NCBI GenBank assembly: GCA_002841655.1
Contig: PHAH01000001.1
Coordinates: forward strand, 1 to 34,257
Source of the DNA: Candidatus Falkowbacteria bacterium HGW-Falkowbacteria-2
Lineage (GTDB): Bacteria > Patescibacteriota > Patescibacteriia > Patescibacteriales > UBA12465
Length of the DNA: 34,257 nt
Direction: 5' to 3'
Position numbers and translations under genes: made by a program
Part shown: positions 2,522-9,353 of the stretch, piece by piece
Layout of the letters: every line of letters begins with the position of its first letter
Numbering within the stretch: position 1 is the first letter of the stretch
The notes under the pieces: generated by a model
Seen by the model: only the letters and a program-made list of their open reading frames with translations
Told to the model about the DNA's origin: nothing
Databases searched by the model: none

Positions 2522-5500
2522 TTAGTTCTTAGACAAGGTCCAGGTCTGGGTATCCAATCCGGGTACATTGTAGCCATTAGCCCAAGTATAAGCGGAGATG
2601 GAAGCGCCATCAGACCAAGCGAAATTGCCGTCTAAGTCAGTTGTCAATGCTCCAGTCAAAGAATCGAAAGGAGTATCTTCAACAATCTTAGCAGTGATGG
2701 ATTCAGAACCAGTACCAGAAACACCTACAGTCGCAATAACTTCGAAGGTCTTAGTCGTGCCAGCGGCAACGATTTCAGGAGAAGCTAAAGTAATAGTCAG
2801 GTCGTCGCTATCAAGAGCAGCAGTTGCAGCCTTGTTGGCGCCATTAACCTTTAGGGTGTTGGTGGTAGTTGCCAAAGTTGCACTTGCAGTCTTACTGGTG
2901 AGCAAGGTGAAGCGACCAACGGTCACATCAGCATTTGCATCAGCAGTAACAGTGAACTTAGCGATTACCTTGTCACCAGCGTTTAAGAGAGTATCCGGTA
3001 AAGCTTGATAGGTAACGGTCGGGATAGTCTTGCGGATGATGAAGGTGGATGCAGTCAAGACAGCAGGATTGCCACCCTGGCCATCCAAAGTAACTGTCTG
3101 TTCAGCACCAGCGGAAGACTTAAACTTCACGCTTTCAACCTGTAACTGGAATGTCTTGTTAGTAGCAGTCGCATCATTCTCAATGTTGTTGAGAGAGAGG
3201 CGTACAGACAAGGTCTTAGAACCATTAGCTGGAACAACAATAGTGTTGTTAGCAATAGTAAACTTGCCAGCGCCATTAACTGGGACGAACTGATCGATTA
3301 AAGTGGAGCCATCATAAAGTTTGATAGCAGCAATTCTAGGATCAGCATCTACTCCCTCATCATTGCTGATGTTGATTTCACTTAAATTAGCGACATCATT
3401 AACAGCTGTGAGTTTAATCTGAGCGACTTCCTGGTCCATAGCCTTAGAAACTAAGAGACCATCAACAGGAGAATCACCACCAACTTCTACAGTCAAAGTA
3501 CCAGAAGCCTTAACCTGGAATTGAGTTGTTTGAGCAGTGTTTCCAGAGGAGATAACGGTACCGCGAGAATCTTGAGCATTAATTGTCATAACTGTAGCGA
3601 AGTAGCTATCAGTTACAGCTGAAGAATCAATAGTACCCTTAATCTCTAAGCTCTTAGTGGTATCTTTTGCAATGTTGACATTCAATGAAGAGAAGTTTGC
3701 ACCGCTCGATCCAAAGTCAACAGTATTGCCAACCTGAACGCCATCAACATAAAGCTTCATATCAGAGATAGCTGAAGCTAATGTAGCTGTAGTTGAGCCG
3801 ATATTGCCGCCAAAAGAAACGGAAGTAATTTTTACTTCATCGTTGGTGGCCTTTACAGTAAATTTACCGAAAGAGATATCGGTGCTACCAGCAACAACAG
3901 GCTTGTTGTTACCATAGCCGTCGTTGCGGACAGTAGTTAAAGCAGCTCCCTGTACAGTGAAGGTAGCGCCAGTTGCGCTTCCGCCAATAGTAGCAACGGA
4001 GTTACCAGACACTACGTATTCAGCGTTAAATCCGGTGAAAACATCGGTGCCAAGAATCTTGGCATAGAATGCAGAAGTGGCTGTGGCATTGCTTTTAGCT
4101 TTAACCATAACTCTCACTTCGTTATCACCCTTATTAAGGCTGATTGAGCTGTCGATATCTGCAGTCAACAAAGTAGTTGTGCTTACAGAAGGATCGAAAG
4201 AGTCAAGAAGAACTCCGTTAAGGAATACTCTGACGTTTTCGAACTGGTTGGTTGTAGTTGCAGTGGTTGCATCAGAACCATACCAAATCTTCATGCCATC
4301 AGCAACGACCTGTTCGTCAGCGCGAATGTTGGCAATTAAGACAACATTATCTGTGCCCTTAACGATAGTTGTGTCAGATGGAGAAGTGCTTTTCTTTGAG
4401 ATTGATACATTACCAGCCTCGATTGTTCTGATAGAGATCTGGTGAGCATCTGCTAAAACAGTGCTGGAATTTGTGGTGTAAGTATTTACGCCGAATCCAG
4501 TGCTTTTTTCATAAGCAACTAAGTCAGTAGACTTGTTTAACTCAAGAACAAAGCTGTTAAGACCGGTGTTTTCCTTAGAGATGATATCTCCTTTAACATA
4601 AAAGAGTTTGCTACCATCATCCTTCAAAAGGTCGAAACCTTCATTGAAGAAGAAAGTGACAAAGCGACCATCAACAGTATATCTGGAAGTTACCTTGTTA
4701 CCAGCATGTTCCAGGTAAAGATTCATGGTTGTTTTGGAAAGATCCTCAACACCATTGTTCTTTAAAGTGATGGAGCTCAATCTTACATCCTTAGCAGCGG
4801 TGCCGCCAGAAGTATTGAATCCGAGCTCAAAGCGACCCATGTCAACCTTCTCATCGCCAACCTTAATAGTGCTGGTAGCAACATTCATACCAGTCATAGC
4901 AAGCTTAGCAACATCATAAGCAATCAAAGACATTAAATTACCATTGATTGGGAATGAGCCGGTAACAGAAGCGGCAGTAGCACTAACTGCGGAAGCAGAA
5001 GCTACAGCGAGACCAATATTACCAGTGCCAGTGCCAGTTAAAGAAGCAACGAGATCGATGCCTAAGGTCTGACCAGCTGGGATGTTAAGAGCAGGAGAGA
5101 AAACTAAGATAGCTTCATCGTTCGAATTCATTGATTTCTTCGAAGCGATTACGTTACCGTTGTATTCAGCCCAAACTTTGTCTACATCATTGTAAGATGA
5201 AAGACCAATTCTCTTAACAGTAATTGAATTGATAGATACATTACCATCAGAAGCAGCGGTCAAGTTAACCTTAGTGAAAGGAACTCTAACGCCATTCTTC
5301 GGGATGGAAGTAGACATTGGGGTCTGTGAGCTTAAAGCTAAAGACAAACCAGAACCTGTGATTGGAGAACCAACGCCACCTGAAGGAGCTGAGAAAGTTT
5401 CAGCACCAGTGATGCTTGAACCAGAAGCGGTTAAAGTCATTGTGGTGGTAACAACATTGTTGAAGCTGAAGCGATTTGCATTGAATGCAGATTCGCTGGC

Positions 5501-6055
5501 AATCAAACGATAGTTGGTGCCATCAAAGTAATAGATGCTTGCGTTGTCAGCATTCTTCAATAAAGTACCAGCTGGGTAAGTACCAGAAGGTAATGGTGAG
5601 CCAACAGTGTAGTTGGTGAAGAATGAGTCAGCGACGTCGACGATGATCTTGTTCCAATTGGAACCGTACAAAGCGATAGCATCAGCTTCACTCTGGATCT
5701 TTCTTAAAACGCCATTAGGAGTAACAGCGTAAACAGAAGGATCGGTTGTGATTTTCACGAGCTTAGTGCCCGGTCTCATTGTAACGTTAGAACCTAACGG
5801 ATAGGTCTGTAATTCAGAAGCTGGGATGGTTACCACGCCGCTGAAGTCAGCATACCAAGAGAAATAAACGGATTCGCTTGGGAAGACATATCTTTTTCCA
5901 TCGGAGCCAAGGTAATAAACGGAGGACAAGCCATCCATTTTAATCAAATCACCAGCCTGTGCAGCAGCCTTAGCTGTATTCACAGTTAAACCGCTCATAG
6001 CGATGATTGACAATACCATTACGCCGATAGTTAAGAATTTGCGTAATTTTTTCAT
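2522..6055 (-). CDS. giant secreted surface / S-layer-like protein (1177 aa)
   Basis: The ORF runs to 6106 from a TTG. The ATG at 6055 gives MKKLRKFLTIGVMVLSIIAMSGLTVNTAKAA, a classic signal peptide. The remainder is T/S/V/G/A/N-rich and beta-rich with no cysteine. The N-terminus carries two copies of a YY.G.DG.RY.F..ES.F-like motif. Confidence 0.9.
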   Translation of the reverse strand: MKKLRKFLTIGVMVLSIIAMSGLTVNTAKAAAQAGDLIKMDGLSSVYYLGSDGKRYVFPSESVYFSWYADFSGVVTIPASELQTYPLGSNVTMRPGTKLVKITTDPSVYAVTPNGVLRKIQSEADAIALYGSNWNKIIVDVADSFFTNYTVGSPLPSGTYPAGTLLKNADNASIYYFDGTNYRLIASESAFNANRFSFNNVVTTTMTLTASGSSITGAETFSAPSGGVGSPITGSGLSLALSSQTPMSTSIPKNGVRVPFTKVNLTAASDGNVSINSITVKRIGLSSYNDVDKVWAEYNGNVIASKKSMNSNDEAILVFSPALNIPAGQTLGIDLVASLTGTGTGNIGLAVASASAVSATAASVTGSFPINGNLMSLIAYDVAKLAMTGMNVATSTIKVGDEKVDMGRFELGFNTSGGTAAKDVRLSSITLKNNGVEDLSKTTMNLYLEHAGNKVTSRYTVDGRFVTFFFNEGFDLLKDDGSKLFYVKGDIISKENTGLNSFVLELNKSTDLVAYEKSTGFGVNTYTTNSSTVLADAHQISIRTIEAGNVSISKKSTSPSDTTIVKGTDNVVLIANIRADEQVVADGMKIWYGSDATTATTTNQFENVRVFLNGVLLDSFDPSVSTTTLLTADIDSSISLNKGDNEVRVMVKAKSNATATSAFYAKILGTDVFTGFNAEYVVSGNSVATIGGSATGATFTVQGAALTTVRNDGYGNNKPVVAGSTDISFGKFTVKATNDEVKITSVSFGGNIGSTTATLASAISDMKLYVDGVQVGNTVDFGSSGANFSSLNVNIAKDTTKSLEIKGTIDSSAVTDSYFATVMTINAQDSRGTVISSGNTAQTTQFQVKASGTLTVEVGGDSPVDGLLVSKAMDQEVAQIKLTAVNDVANLSEINISNDEGVDADPRIAAIKLYDGSTLIDQFVPVNGAGKFTIANNTIVVPANGSKTLSVRLSLNNIENDATATNKTFQLQVESVKFKSSAGAEQTVTLDGQGGNPAVLTASTFIIRKTIPTVTYQALPDTLLNAGDKVIAKFTVTADANADVTVGRFTLLTSKTASATLATTTNTLKVNGANKAATAALDSDDLTITLASPEIVAAGTTKTFEVIATVGVSGTGSESITAKIVEDTPFDSLTGALTTDLDGNFAWSDGASISAYTWANGYNVPGLDTQTWTLSKN

Positions 6056-6106
6056 AAGTAATAGATAAATCACTGACAGTTGTCCACACAATAGTAGCGA
6101 GAACAA

Positions 6107-6706: not shown

Positions 6707-7507
6707 TTATTTAATGAGCTCGCGCACTTCCTTAATCTTCTCCATGGCGCCGTTATATTCTTTATTATCAAACAAGGTTTTAGCTTCATCGAGAATCTCA
6801 TTGGCAGCCTTTACATCTTTAACTGGTTCAGTTTTGACTTCGAGAGTACCAGTAGCACTAGACGTGGCGGTGGTGGTTGGGGTAACAGTACCGTTGTTGA
6901 TTGAGAGCTGGAGACCAGCGCCATCTTTTTCAGTACCGGCAGAAATAATGATGCCATCTTCACTTACAGCTGAATCAGATACTTCAGGAGCAATGGCAGT
7001 TTTCTGGATGGCGGCGATACGGGCACGGACGGTATTAATTTCACGATCGAAGTTCTTATTGAGCTCGGCAACCTTCACTTCATTATGAGCTCCCTCTTCT
7101 GTTCTTGATAAAACTTCGGTAATCGCTTCAGCGTGATCAGCGGCAAACTTCACTTCTAATTTTGCCTTCTCTTCATTATTGAATACGGTTGAGAGTTTTG
7201 CCTTCTCCGAAATGATACGCGCGATGTATAGAGATTCATCCGGCTTCGCTCTATTAAAGGCGAGGTGACCAAAGGCGCTAGCGCCAGTGGCAAACAATAG
7301 TAAGGCACCTAAAACCAAGGCCGGTTGAGAGACGGTCATGGTGAAGCTACGAGCATCAATTAAGATGCGCTTCCAGACAGACAATTCCTTTACCCCAGAG
7401 TTAGAGATTTGGGATAGCAAAATCTCCCGGTTGCTTTTCAACCAGGCTGAATCAGGAGTTATCTTCTTGAGGTCCTTCAGTTGTTTGATGAAGTTATTCT
7501 CAGTCAT
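6707..7507 (-). CDS. single-pass membrane protein resembling DUF5667-type putative anti-sigma partners
   Basis: The ORF track starts at TTG 7513; the ATG is at 7507 (MTENNFIKQLKDLKKITPDSAWLKSNREILLSQI). It has one TM segment followed by a helical/coiled region and a T-rich linker. The family call is from memory of CPR annotations. Confidence 0.7.
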   Translation of the reverse strand: MTENNFIKQLKDLKKITPDSAWLKSNREILLSQISNSGVKELSVWKRILIDARSFTMTVSQPALVLGALLLFATGASAFGHLAFNRAKPDESLYIARIISEKAKLSTVFNNEEKAKLEVKFAADHAEAITEVLSRTEEGAHNEVKVAELNKNFDREINTVRARIAAIQKTAIAPEVSDSAVSEDGIIISAGTEKDGAGLQLSINNGTVTPTTTATSSATGTLEVKTEPVKDVKAANEILDEAKTLFDNKEYNGAMEKIKEVRELIK

Positions 7508-7638
7508 ACGCAATAGTATACGGATGAGTAGTCATTATGTTACAGTCCCCTGCTCCATTTCCGCCCGTCTTTATTGATGATTTCTCGCCCTACCTGACTT
7601 AAGTCTAGAGATATGTGGACTTAAGGTTGAAGATTGTA

Positions 7639-7736
7639 TTTGACCCGAGATTTCTCTAAATGATATAATAATAGTGTCGAGTCCGTTCCTGCTTCCTCAG
7701 TTAAAAAATAAGCACCCGAAAGGGTGCTTATTTAAT
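7639..7736 (+). ncRNA. mini-unit A: promoter + ~60-nt transcript + terminator (candidate sRNA)
   Basis: TTGACC 7639-7644 and TGaTATAAT 7661-7669. Transcript GTGTCGAGTCCGTTCCTGCTTCCTCAG..., then hairpin AAATAAGCACCC-GAAA-GGGTGCTTATTT at 7706-7733. Confidence 0.4.
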
Positions 7737-7805
7737 AGATATTTCGGGATTCTTATAGGCATGAACTTGACCTTTATATTATAGCACTCTAAGGGTAAGA
7801 GTCAA
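7703..7805 (-). ncRNA. mini-unit D: promoter + ~70-nt transcript + terminator (candidate sRNA antisense to the tRNA-like gene)
   Basis: Minus-strand TTGACT 7805-7800, 16-nt spacer, TGcTATAAT 7786-7778. Transcript GGTCAAGTTCATGCCTATAAGAATCCCGAAAT..., then the same hairpin 7733-7706 followed by T6. Confidence 0.45.
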
Positions 7806-7821
7806 GCAACCCAGAGCTGGG

Positions 7822-7889
7822 TGGACCCGCGGGGAATCGAACCCCGAGGCGATGAGTGTCAAGTTCATGCCTAAGACCACGTCGGGCCC
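7822..7889 (-). tRNA. non-canonical tRNA-like gene (68 nt), identity undetermined
   Basis: GGGCCCGACGTGGTCTTAGGCATGAACTTGACACTCATCGCCTCGGGGTTCGATTCCCCGCGGGTCCA. The 7-bp acceptor stem has a G3:U70 pair. The T arm is canonical (CGGGG-TTCGATT-CCCCG) and the discriminator is A. The core is about 5 nt too short to hold both a D arm and an anticodon arm. TGcTAGAAT (7908-7900) lies just upstream. Confidence 0.5.
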
Positions 7890-7953
7890 ACTAGAAATCA
7901 TTCTAGCAAATACGTGGTAACTGCAGGATAACAAGACGTTAACTATTTTATAA

Positions 7954-8051
7954 TTGACTCTGTAATCAAAAATGATGCAATTAAATTGTCGATTCCGTTT
8001 CTGAGCCCTGAATCCATTATCAAATAAGCACCCTTTCGGGTGCTTATTTTT
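7954..8051 (+). ncRNA. mini-unit B: promoter + ~65-nt transcript + terminator (candidate sRNA)
   Basis: TTGACT 7954-7959, 16-nt spacer, TGaTGCAAT 7973-7981. Transcript TTGTCGATTCCGTTTCTGAGCCCTGAATCC..., then hairpin 8022-8049 plus a T-run. Confidence 0.4.
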
Positions 8052-8074
8052 ATGCTGAAGTTCTATAAGACCAA

Positions 8075-8102
8075 TTGACAAAGCGTGGCTTAATGTTATG
8101 CT
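8075..8102 (+). promoter_or_regulatory. sigma70-type promoter for 8129..8413
   Basis: TTGACA 8075-8080, 16-nt spacer, TGtTATGCT 8094-8102. Confidence 0.55.
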
Positions 8103-8128
8103 TTTCATATCACCAACACACTTTAGTT

Positions 8129-8413
8129 ATGGAAAATAATACCAGCAAGCATCCGCAACATGTCGTTGGTTATGATGGTTCATTTAAGGACTTAGCTGAG
8201 GCTATTGGCACCATGAGCTACGATCAAGTTGCCGTCTTCCTTGGTGAGCTCGCCGCAAACATTCTCGAGCAAGCCATTTCCGACTTAAAAGTACGAAACA
8301 GACCTAAGCTGGCCCAACATTTATTCGCAGCGGCTGGAGAAATCAAAAAAGCTCAAAGTGAAATGGACTCCGCCTGGAAGGTCTGCAAACCGTATATGCC
8401 AAAACAATCTTGA
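8129..8413 (+). CDS. small hypothetical protein (94 aa)
   Basis: The ORF track starts at TTG 8075, but that TTG is the -35 box. The first ATG after the promoter is at 8129 (MENNTSKHPQHVVGYDG...). The protein looks helical and soluble, with no recognised motif. Confidence 0.6.
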   Translation: MENNTSKHPQHVVGYDGSFKDLAEAIGTMSYDQVAVFLGELAANILEQAISDLKVRNRPKLAQHLFAAAGEIKKAQSEMDSAWKVCKPYMPKQS

Positions 8414-8420
8414 TAATAAA

Positions 8421-8443
8421 GGAAGTATTTACTTCCTTTTTTT
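8421..8443 (+). terminator. intrinsic terminator of 8129..8413
   Basis: GGAAGT (8421-8426) / ACTTCC (8431-8436) followed by T7. Confidence 0.7.
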
Positions 8444-8444
8444 A

Positions 8445-8546
8445 TTGACTGCCCTCCCAATAGTGATATAATAATAGTGTTAAGTTCGTTCTTGCTCGAA
8501 TCCCGAATAGAATATCAAATAAGCACCCTTTCGGGTGCTTATTTTT
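8445..8546 (+). ncRNA. mini-unit C: promoter + ~70-nt transcript + terminator (candidate sRNA)
   Basis: TTGACT 8445-8450, 16-nt spacer, TGaTATAAT 8464-8472. Transcript GTGTTAAGTTCGTTCTTGCTCGAATCCCGAATAG..., then hairpin 8517-8544 plus a T-run. The hairpin probably also terminates the convergent sigma gene. Confidence 0.4.
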
Positions 8547-8582
8547 ATATACAAATTCGGTTTGTTTAATCTATTTCTTTTC

Positions 8583-9173
8583 CTATCTCTTTCCCTTCTC
8601 CATCTCACCTTCAACCATCTCTTTGAGGGCGGCTAGGGCGCGGTGAAGGATGACGCGGATGTTGCCTTTTGACTTACCAGTAACAGCCGCGATCTCTTCC
8701 AGGCTGAGGTCGTTTACAAAGCGCAAAATGATCACCTCACGGTATTCTTCTTTAAGAAGGGGCAACTGCTTGCGGATGAGCTCCATGTCGCTCTCTTGGT
8801 CCATATTGGCAGCCAGGTCCTGATTGTCATCAACTACATCAATCGGGTTATTCTCATCATCAAGCGAAACCTCTAGCTTATTCCCACTTTCGCGGTAGTA
8901 GTCGATGATGGAGGTGCGAGCAACCTTATATACTAAAGCGCGCAGAGTGCGGCTATCACTTAGACTGTTTGACTGGATATAGTTCCAGGCTTTAAGGAAG
9001 ATCATGGAAGTGAGATCACGAGCTTCTTCTTCACGCCCAACTTTAAAGTAGACGAAACGATAAACGTCTTCCACGTAGTCATCGTAGACTTTAATAAATG
9101 CCTCCTTATCTCCACTTTTCAGCTGTTGCAACAGTTGCTTGTCCTTGAATTTTTTTATTAGATTGGGGGCCAT
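8583..9173 (-). CDS. RNA polymerase sigma factor, sigma-70 family, ECF-like (regions 2 and 4)
   Basis: Region 2 is DVYRFVYFKVGREEEARDLTSMIFLKAW. Region 4 HTH is LSLEEIAAVTGKSKGNIRVILHRALAALK. The ORF track starts at TTG 9185; the ATG is at 9173. Confidence 0.85.
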   Translation of the reverse strand: MAPNLIKKFKDKQLLQQLKSGDKEAFIKVYDDYVEDVYRFVYFKVGREEEARDLTSMIFLKAWNYIQSNSLSDSRTLRALVYKVARTSIIDYYRESGNKLEVSLDDENNPIDVVDDNQDLAANMDQESDMELIRKQLPLLKEEYREVIILRFVNDLSLEEIAAVTGKSKGNIRVILHRALAALKEMVEGEMEKGKR

Positions 9174-9353
9174 GATTATAATCAAAAATAAAGGGAGTAT
9201 TTCCCTTTCGCTAAGATATCTATTTTAACTTCTATATTCTAGCACAAAAATGCAAAAAAGCAAGAAATTTTTACCCCTTTTTGTTGTGTATAATAAGACG
9301 CAAATAGTTATAAATTCGTCACTTTCAGGTGTGAGCGATCTTCTTCCTTGCTA

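Follow-up and report, generated by a model that had tools for sequence, protein, structure and literature searches.

Homologues of transfer-messenger RNA (tmRNA) that consist of the tRNA-like domain (TLD) and lack a coding sequence (CDS) have been described in mycobacteriophage DS6A, in jakobid mitochondria and in the plastids of Mallomonadaceae (PMC4131195; PMC11915505). Beyond organelles, such TLD-only relatives are known only from a single phage and some unusual bacteria, these papers describe no partner RNA for them, and a TLD-only molecule is reported to inhibit tmRNA and trans-translation strongly, perhaps by titrating SmpB (PMC4131195; PMC11915505). Here we analyse the first 34,257 nucleotides of contig PHAH01000001.1 of Candidatus Falkowbacteria bacterium HGW-Falkowbacteria-2 (hereafter the window), a stretch of chromosomal DNA with 42.6% GC in which four short promoter-to-terminator units, A to D, are clustered around a gene for a 71-nt tRNA-like RNA. 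On balance we favour a reading in which the units are genes of a small-RNA family and unit D encodes a dedicated, strand-invading partner of this mini-tmRNA-like RNA. Both kinds of molecule, the base-pairing small RNA and the CDS-less tmRNA relative, are known; what would be new is their partnership, of which no description was found in the literature searched. The elements concerned are:

7889-7819, minus strand: tRNA-like (TLD-only tmRNA-like) RNA gene, 71 nt, between units D and B; its segment complementary to unit D is 7873-7858.
7890-7910, minus strand: putative promoter of the tRNA-like gene, with an extended -10 TGCTAGAAT (TG 7908-7907, hexamer 7905-7900), read from the sequence.
7640-7740, plus strand: unit A; -35 TTGACC 7640-7645; -10 TGATATAAT (hexamer 7664-7669); predicted start (+1) G7676 (GUCGAGUCCGUUCCUG...).
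7700-7805, minus strand: unit D; -35 TTGACT 7805-7800; -10 TATAAT 7783-7778; predicted +1 G7771.
7954-8054, plus strand: unit B; -35 TTGACT 7954-7959; -10 TGATGCAAT (hexamer 7976-7981); predicted +1 G7988 (GUCGAUUCCGUUUCUG...).
8445-8549, plus strand: unit C; -35 TTGACT 8445-8450; -10 TGATATAAT (hexamer 8467-8472); predicted +1 G8479 (GUUAAGUUCGUUCUUG...).

The tRNA-like RNA has the sequence GGGCCCG-ACGUGGUCUU-AGGCAUGA-ACUUGACAC-UCAU(C)GCCU-CGGGG-UUCGAUU-CCCCG-CGGGUCC-ACCC. Its 7-bp acceptor stem (GGGCCCG/CGGGUCC) carries a G3:U70 pair and is followed by a discriminator A and then CCC; a G3:U70 acceptor together with discriminator A is the alanine identity set. The T arm is canonical (CGGGG-UUCGAUU-CCCCG), there is no D stem, and a 10-nt D-loop analogue carries GG at nt 12-13, the position that GG occupies in canonical tmRNAs with an identical acceptor stem. 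The 7-bp acceptor with G3:U70, the UUCGA T-loop and the stemless D-loop analogue are those of the tRNA-like domain of tmRNA, whereas the mRNA-like region, with its resume codon, tag frame and pseudoknots, is missing: the two halves are separated by just a 7-8-bp helix and its 9-nt loop (about 25 nt), and this helix, AGGCAUGA/UCAU(C)GCCU, is the sole inner helix. The best Rfam match is tmRNA (RF00023, 30 bits, E 4.8e-10, where the gathering score is 47), in an alignment that joins the two TLD halves across a 310-position deletion; the copies in the window and in the relatives L011 and L175 score 30, 28.9 and 18.7 bits, all below that threshold. Within the Rfam clan tmRNA outscores tRNA, and tRNA-Ala genes, too, typically have an acceptor stem and T arm of this kind. 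A canonical tRNA is not indicated, given the missing D stem, the 9-nt loop, a would-be anticodon that reads UGA versus UAA between close relatives and the output of ARAGORN, which reported no tmRNA or tRNA in the window. Transcription is predicted to start 2-4 nt before G1 from the putative promoter, whose block TTTGCTAGAATGATT is kept in L011 and L175. Overlapping the 3' ACC(C) of the gene is a small hairpin (window 7813-7822, minus strand; L011 3312-3322; also L175) that covaries, with CCAG..CUGG in the window and L011 and CCGG..CCGG in L175, and that could be a processing or termination signal. Scanning metagenomes with a loose T-arm/acceptor pattern returned ordinary tRNA-Ala and tmRNA genes only, and phage records and viral contigs held nothing like the tRNA-like gene, just phage tRNA-Ala genes.

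The TLD-only homologues share with this RNA their size (about 65-70 nt), the G3:U70 acceptor, the canonical T arm, the absence of a tag frame, the short stemless D-loop analogue and the short helix that replaces the anticodon arm. Unlike them, the tRNA-like RNA is encoded on the chromosome of a Patescibacteria-like host behind its own putative promoter, and it is coupled to a small RNA, predicted to be transcribed separately, that covaries with its inner helix. With the Rfam score below threshold, homology to tmRNA rather than to tRNA-Ala is putative.

The coupling takes the form of a perfect 16-nt inverted repeat (7756-7771/7858-7873), recovered by a repeat finder and by blast within the window (E 4.9e-4). 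Counted from the predicted +1 at 7771, nt 1-16 of unit D (GUCAAGUUCAUGCCUA) are perfectly complementary to the 5' strand of the inner helix and most of its loop, and the corresponding segments can be aligned in the three genomes that carry the pair:

Window: unit 5' end GUCAAGUUCAUGCCUA; tRNA-like arm UAGGCAUGAACUUGAC.
L011: unit 5' end GUUAAGAUCACGCUUG; tRNA-like arm CAAGCGUGGUCUUAAC.
L175: unit 5' end GUCAAGAACACGUCUG; tRNA-like arm CGGACGUGUUCUUGAC.

All 48 of the 48 cells of this alignment pair and 7 of the 16 pairs are changed on both sides, a pairing value reached by none of 500 shuffles, with slid registers pairing at 21-40%. Just two cells are non-Watson-Crick, both of them G-U on the predicted transcribed strand, and in all three genomes the helix has the same length and starts at the predicted +1, the seventh nt after the -10. 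The inner helix of the tRNA-like RNA covaries as well (23 of 24 cells pair and three of eight pairs are doubly changed, a single bulged base having been removed by hand), and nt 9-16 of the small RNA are a near copy of its 3' strand (CAUGCCU, CACGCUU, CACGUCU). Because the unit 5' end, the helix 5' strand and the helix 3' strand all covary, three segments co-evolve, and on this alignment their co-evolution is the signature expected if the small RNA and the 3' strand compete for the 5' strand. Cognate duplexes have energies of -31 to -33.5 kcal/mol (unit D -31.9), against -17 to -27 for non-cognate combinations and about -14 to -18 for shuffles. When the two RNAs are folded together, cognate pairs gain a net -11.6 to -18.6 kcal/mol (unit D -18.6), and units A, B and C with the tRNA-like RNA of the window gain -0.4 to -4.7. 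The complementarity of these three units to it is weak and wobble-rich, although units C and A can form 15 and 14 of the 16 pairs if G-U is allowed. No other partner site for A, B or C, or for the units of partner-less genomes, was found within the loci examined. The complementarity to a partner with compensatory change, together with a promoter and intrinsic terminator of the unit's own that are conserved in relatives and a -10 to +1 spacing constant in 12 units, is what a base-pairing small RNA would display.

These features are consistent with a mechanism in which each unit is the gene for a small RNA of about 65 nt, with its own sigma-70-type promoter and a start at the conserved G (GUYAAG...), followed by about 40 nt of unstructured RNA and then the conserved intrinsic terminator. 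The partner of unit D would be the 71-nt alanine-type tRNA-like RNA of tmRNA-TLD architecture, without a coding region and made from a gene directly upstream of D. With its 5' GUCAAG the small RNA would dock on the CUUGAC loop of the inner helix, the conserved loop CUURAC acting as a toehold for the conserved 5' GUYAAG, and pairing would then grow to exactly 16 bp by displacing the 3' strand of the inner helix. Displacement would remodel the region equivalent to tmRNA helix 2 beside the elbow and tie the two RNAs together 1:1. The most likely consequence would be that the small RNA controls how available or how active a TLD-only tmRNA mimic is, with alanylation and SmpB involvement as putative features of the mimic; reciprocally, the mimic may sequester the 5' end of the small RNA.

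Several described RNA pairs resemble parts of this arrangement. The two-piece tmRNAs of alpha-proteobacteria and cyanobacteria, encoded by permuted ssrA, also comprise two base-paired RNAs of which one has an alanine-accepting tRNA-like end. They arise by cutting one precursor, their pieces pair via the acceptor stem and helix 2, and they have pseudoknots and a clear tag frame, whereas here the tRNA-like RNA is complete alone, the second RNA has its own promoter and would invade the inner helix, and a tag frame is doubtful. In the loop-initiated antisense pairs CopA/CopT, RNA I/RNA II and Sok/hok a single-stranded end or loop likewise nucleates loop pairing that then spreads into a stem, and the region that sets specificity changes rapidly without loss of complementarity. 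Those RNAs are read from opposite strands of the same DNA and are automatically complementary, and the partner is an mRNA or primer; here the partner is a tRNA-like RNA and the two segments lie about 85 nt apart on one strand, so that complementarity needs compensatory change. The 3'ETS-leuZ sponge of RyhB and RybB is similarly a tRNA-associated RNA that pairs with a small-RNA seed. That sponge derives from the spacer of a genuine tRNA operon and acts on Hfq-dependent small RNAs with conserved mRNA targets, while in the present locus the pairing site falls within the body of the tRNA-like RNA and the seed varies.

A preliminary description of this locus had proposed four units with a shared promoter-to-terminator architecture, and this is borne out: there are four sigma-70-type promoters with hairpins, and a hidden Markov model (HMM) trained on 10 units matches the window at full length in exactly four places, at 64-81 bits (A, 7641-7734, 63.7 bits; B, 79.1; C, 81.2). 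Promoter-like sites number 11 between 7000 and 9500 against 5.4 +/- 2.4 in shuffles, and the top three are those of units A, C and D, each with 11 of 12 matches plus the TG extension. The promoter of unit B, TTGACT-N16-TGATGCAAT, has a weaker -10 and is absent from the promoter-scan list. The 28-nt hairpin AAATAAGCACCC-N4-GGGTGCTTATTT, whose 12-bp stem was rightly said to be identical between units, occurs in exactly three copies (7706-7733, 8022-8049 and 8517-8544), with none expected in shuffles. Units A and D indeed share one hairpin, as both end at 7706-7733, a copy that has the family UUUC loop only if read on the strand of unit D. Unit D runs from the pairing segment GUCAAGUUCAUGCCUA at 7771-7756 through a AAUCCCGAA box to the hairpin (7733-7706, UUUC loop) and a U run; a box also precedes the hairpin in units B (GAGCCCUGAA, hairpin 8022-8049) and C (AAUCCCGAA, hairpin 8517-8544), and unit A has no CCYGAR box. 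The repeat finder recovers a 5' family (7661-7693, 7973-8005 and 8464-8496, 73-88% identity), a 3' family, and unit D as a 102-nt inverted copy of unit C (7704-7805 versus 8445-8546, 74%). In the predicted RNAs of about 65 nt the 5' 40 nt or so are unstructured and the terminator hairpin is the sole fold, and consensus folding of 10 units found the terminator alone. The same description held that no unit contains an ATG-initiated open reading frame (ORF), which does not apply to unit D: an ATG at 7762-7760 opens a 21-codon frame through the terminator, without a Shine-Dalgarno sequence and not conserved. It also overlooked both the tRNA-like gene (7889-7819, minus strand) and the perfect 16-nt inverted repeat 7756-7771/7858-7873. 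Of the identifications that it named as refuting, a known Rfam family is not found, since no Rfam 15 family reaches its gathering score on the units in the window and sub-threshold matches (ctRNA_pND324, STnc50, Phe_leader) cover the terminator only. Nor do the units behave as a miniature inverted-repeat transposable element or dispersed repeat: all four copies lie within 0.9 kb, none occurs elsewhere in the 34 kb, and relatives have one copy at the same syntenic locus.

The units also contain T-loop-like strings, UCGAGUCCG in A (7677-7685), UCGAUUCCG in B (7989-7997) and UCGAAUCCCGA in C (8496-8506), which could be chance or relics of tRNA-derived sequence. No support was found for such strings (UCGAGUCC, UCGAUUCC, UCGAAUCCC) as relics of tRNA attachment sites. 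Also rejected was an antiterminator in D and C, in which CCCGAAA would pair with the terminator's UUUCGGG, as it is lost when the loops change in L011, L175, L016, L046 and L021.

Relatives of the locus were found via a hairpin scan of a genome collection and then via homologues of the protein encoded by the adjoining extracytoplasmic function (ECF)-like sigma gene. The scan gave 51 loci, mostly unrelated terminators from many phyla, with real units only in L011, L016, L021, L046 and L054. Full-length HMM matches were obtained only in the window (4), L011, L175, L186, L176, L016/L184/L185, L046 and L021, with L054 weaker. In seven further genomes (L011, L175, L186, L176, L016/L185, L046 and L021) the unit homologue occupies the syntenic spacer between the sigma gene and a DUF5667 gene, and the predicted small-RNA family belongs to a narrow Patescibacteria-like clade, with this spacer as its home. 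All units have TTGACT or a close variant, a non-aligning spacer, TGnTATAAT or TGnTAAAAT, exactly 6 nt and then GUYAAR, followed by the CCYGAR box (absent from unit A of the window) and by AUAUCAAAUAAGCACCC-loop-GGGUGCUUAUUUUU; the promoter hexamers are conserved and their spacers are not. The preliminary description would have been refuted by relatives that carry the sequence only as a hairpin, without the promoter and 5' segment; hairpins occur alone in the more distant L030, L177 and L178, with neither element in L179-183, L187 and L188, and the seven genomes named above have full units. These syntenic units back the view of maintained short RNAs rather than random repeats, while the picture of four equivalent paralogues gives way to one in which D is the cognate partner of the tRNA-like gene and A, B and C have diverged.

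L046, L021, L011 and L175 have a single unit in the spacer, at the position of unit C and convergent on the 3' end of the sigma gene. In L011 and L175, whose sigma proteins are 95% identical to that of the window, one tRNA-like gene is directly followed by one unit in the order and orientation of the tRNA-like gene and unit D; the segment with these two genes is inverted in the window relative to L011 and L175 and bounded by hairpin copies. In L186 and L176 (sigma protein 88%) a D-like unit is kept, and all that is left of the tRNA-like gene in front of it is the final 20 nt or so, joined to one half of a hairpin (...AAGCACCCTAA|C(CCCG)CGGGTCCACCCGGCTCCGGT); judged from this remnant the tRNA-like gene is deleted there and the unit retained. 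Among the loci seen the tRNA-like gene never occurs without a cognate unit, and units do occur without it. Comparison of L178 with L176 reveals a deletion between two hairpin copies, with L178 lacking the unit and two cargo genes. Hairpin copies thus mark the breakpoints of deletions and one inversion (L176 versus L178; L186; window 7706-8049), from which we infer that palindromic hairpins mediate rearrangements and may have given rise to the four-unit expansion; A, B and C are probably diverged paralogues from hairpin-mediated duplication or inversion.

The hairpin itself also serves as a bidirectional terminator of neighbouring genes, and that of unit C doubles as the terminator of the convergent sigma gene (8583-9185, minus strand). 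In unrelated phyla (L004, L025, L033, L036 and L038, Saccharibacteria; Acinetobacter, Algoriphagus, Bacillus) an identical 11-bp stem, AATAAGCACCC/GGGTGCTTATT, stands between convergent genes as their bidirectional terminator, with 51 matches against about 0.1 expected for random sequence, so the hairpin is not a hallmark of the family. The stem is invariant in all units while the loops vary. In L199 (2746-2860, minus strand) and L054 (3854-3960, minus strand) a longer, diverged sequence that begins GUCAAGCUAGCC and ends in the same hairpin adjoins a sigma gene; this may be a remote form of the unit, of which the HMM recognises the hairpin only.

Several observations weigh against gating of a tmRNA mimic by unit D. 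The pair is carried by only three genomes, which are close relatives (sigma protein 95% identical). The L175 copy of the tRNA-like RNA has a C:A mismatch in the T stem along with its weak tmRNA score of 18.7 bits, the minimum free energy of that RNA is unremarkable (z -1.36), and since its tmRNA score is below the gathering score, descent from tRNA-Ala is possible. Units stand without a nearby tRNA-like gene in L016, L021 and L046 and persist after its deletion in L186 and L176, so the small RNA must have, or have had, a role independent of this partner. The main rival reverses the direction: the small RNA would be the effector, at the sigma/anti-sigma locus or elsewhere, and the tRNA-like RNA a younger, lineage-specific sponge or decoy for its 5' end, comparable to sponges from tRNA precursors such as the 3'ETS of leuZ. 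In its favour, the units predate the tRNA-like gene, are found more widely and survive its loss, and that gene is never seen without a cognate unit. The paired 16 nt, however, have changed at seven positions between genomes that still share 95% identity in the sigma protein, a pace of change that makes a conserved mRNA target for this segment hard to see, and no other site with at least 14 of 16 complementary positions was found in the 8-10 kb around partner-less units. We regard the decoy as unlikely, yet as the alternative that most deserves attention. The complementarity might also be a matter of DNA, the units being cassettes of a promoter and bidirectional terminator that shield convergent genes from each other and provide substrates for recombination, with the repeat kept by template switching or gene conversion. 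Quasi-palindrome template switching could indeed maintain the complementarity of inverted repeats with no selection at the RNA level. The hairpin is also the terminator of the sigma gene and of other small genes and stands alone in L030, L177 and L178, and deletions and an inversion map to hairpin copies (L178 versus L176; the L186/L176 remnants; the orientation of the window versus L011). Such an origin is made less likely by the imperfect positions, which are both G-U and not A-C on the predicted RNA strand, by a helix that starts exactly at the predicted +1 in three genomes, and by a third segment, the inner-helix 3' strand, that covaries; GUYAAG and CCYGAR are moreover kept in the transcribed part while promoter spacers vary freely. 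We consider it improbable.

Two further readings give the tRNA-like RNA a different task. It could be the alanine-charged mini-tmRNA of a split, gene-fissioned tmRNA analogue, docking on unit nt 1-16 so that a unit frame lacking a start codon serves as tag template, with the stop UAA in the 5' arm of the hairpin. Units do lack a start codon (one ATG in unit D excepted), several have UAG just before +1, and a frame N/S-P-E-x-x-I-K-stop can be read in D, B, L011, L175 and L021, in which the box AAU/AAC/AGC-CCC/CCU-GAA/GAG varies at each third base and the differences between L021 and L054 and between L186 and L176 are synonymous. That periodicity is based on very few substitutions, too few for a test, and C, L186, L016 and L046 have this frame broken or out of register. 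The tags would also lack the usual hydrophobic-Ala-Ala end, the single-stranded part of the small RNA would emerge beside the tRNA-like body rather than distal to helix 2 as in tmRNA, and units exist without the tRNA-like gene. We hold this reading to be very improbable; if true, it would amount to trans-translation from two independently expressed RNAs. Least credible of all is a leader or attenuator in which the unit terminator controls read-through, from B into a 94-aa ORF (orf94) and from D into the DUF5667 gene, with the tRNA-like RNA in the part of a T-box tRNA. Its appeal lies in the position of B upstream of orf94 and of D upstream of the DUF5667 gene on the same strand, but both genes have promoters of their own (TTGACA-N16-TATGCT at 8075-8102 and GTAACA-N15-CGTATA at 7543-7515), A and C face no downstream gene, the single unit of relatives converges on the sigma gene, and consensus folding and manual checks found no conserved antiterminator alternative. 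Gating of the mini-tmRNA-like RNA by its dedicated small RNA is the reading that we favour.

The unit cluster is flanked by the ECF-like sigma gene and by the DUF5667 gene (6707-7513, minus strand), whose product is anti-sigma-like. Ordinary housekeeping genes are found nearby (SPOUT methylase, ZnuA/ABC, P-type ATPase, PhoH-PIN), as is an HU gene (Bac_DNA_binding) seen in the near-identical contig L001, and the source labels of sigma-protein homologues are Patescibacteria or Falkowbacteria. There is no smpB gene within the 34-kb window. A 1194-aa ORF at 2522-6106 (minus strand) is without a significant Pfam domain, and large ORFs homologous to it come after the DUF5667 gene in L179, L182, L185 and L187. 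The ECF-type promoter of the DUF5667 gene (7543-7515, minus strand), a motif also kept in L179, L182, L186 and L200, lies upstream of the ATG at 7508-7506 and ends about 9 nt before this start codon, which suggests that the mRNA is leaderless or near-leaderless. Between the units and the DUF5667 gene all relatives (L021, L046, L030, L176, L179, L182, L185) keep a palindrome, (GAT)AAGTCYAS-N6-8-STRGACTTA(TC), that is degenerate in the window at 7596-7634 (GACTTAAGTCTAGAGAT/GACTTAAGGTTGAAGAT) and may be an operator. The spacer between the sigma and DUF5667 genes is also a hotspot of small cargo genes (DUF3800, NYN, HTH, HicA and orf94), the last of which is placed as follows:

8129-8413, plus strand: orf94, a 94-aa ORF for a conserved small protein, between units B and C, with its own terminator at 8415-8442.

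This ORF is 59% identical to L185 6682-6963 (minus strand), and in both the window and L185 its own terminator comes next and then a unit. No Pfam or PDB match was found for orf94, and a word-indexed protein search gave the query alone, though the L185 homologue is a called gene.

To our knowledge, the regulatory RNAs of Patescibacteria (Candidate Phyla Radiation) are poorly characterised. The locus offers a compact RNA-RNA pair, a 16-bp helix with three-way covariation, which may show how a cell controls a potential inhibitor of ribosome rescue or, alternatively, how an RNA with the shape of a tRNA serves to titrate a small RNA. As predicted from the pairing, it would be a natural case of toehold-type strand displacement kept by compensatory evolution between two genes.

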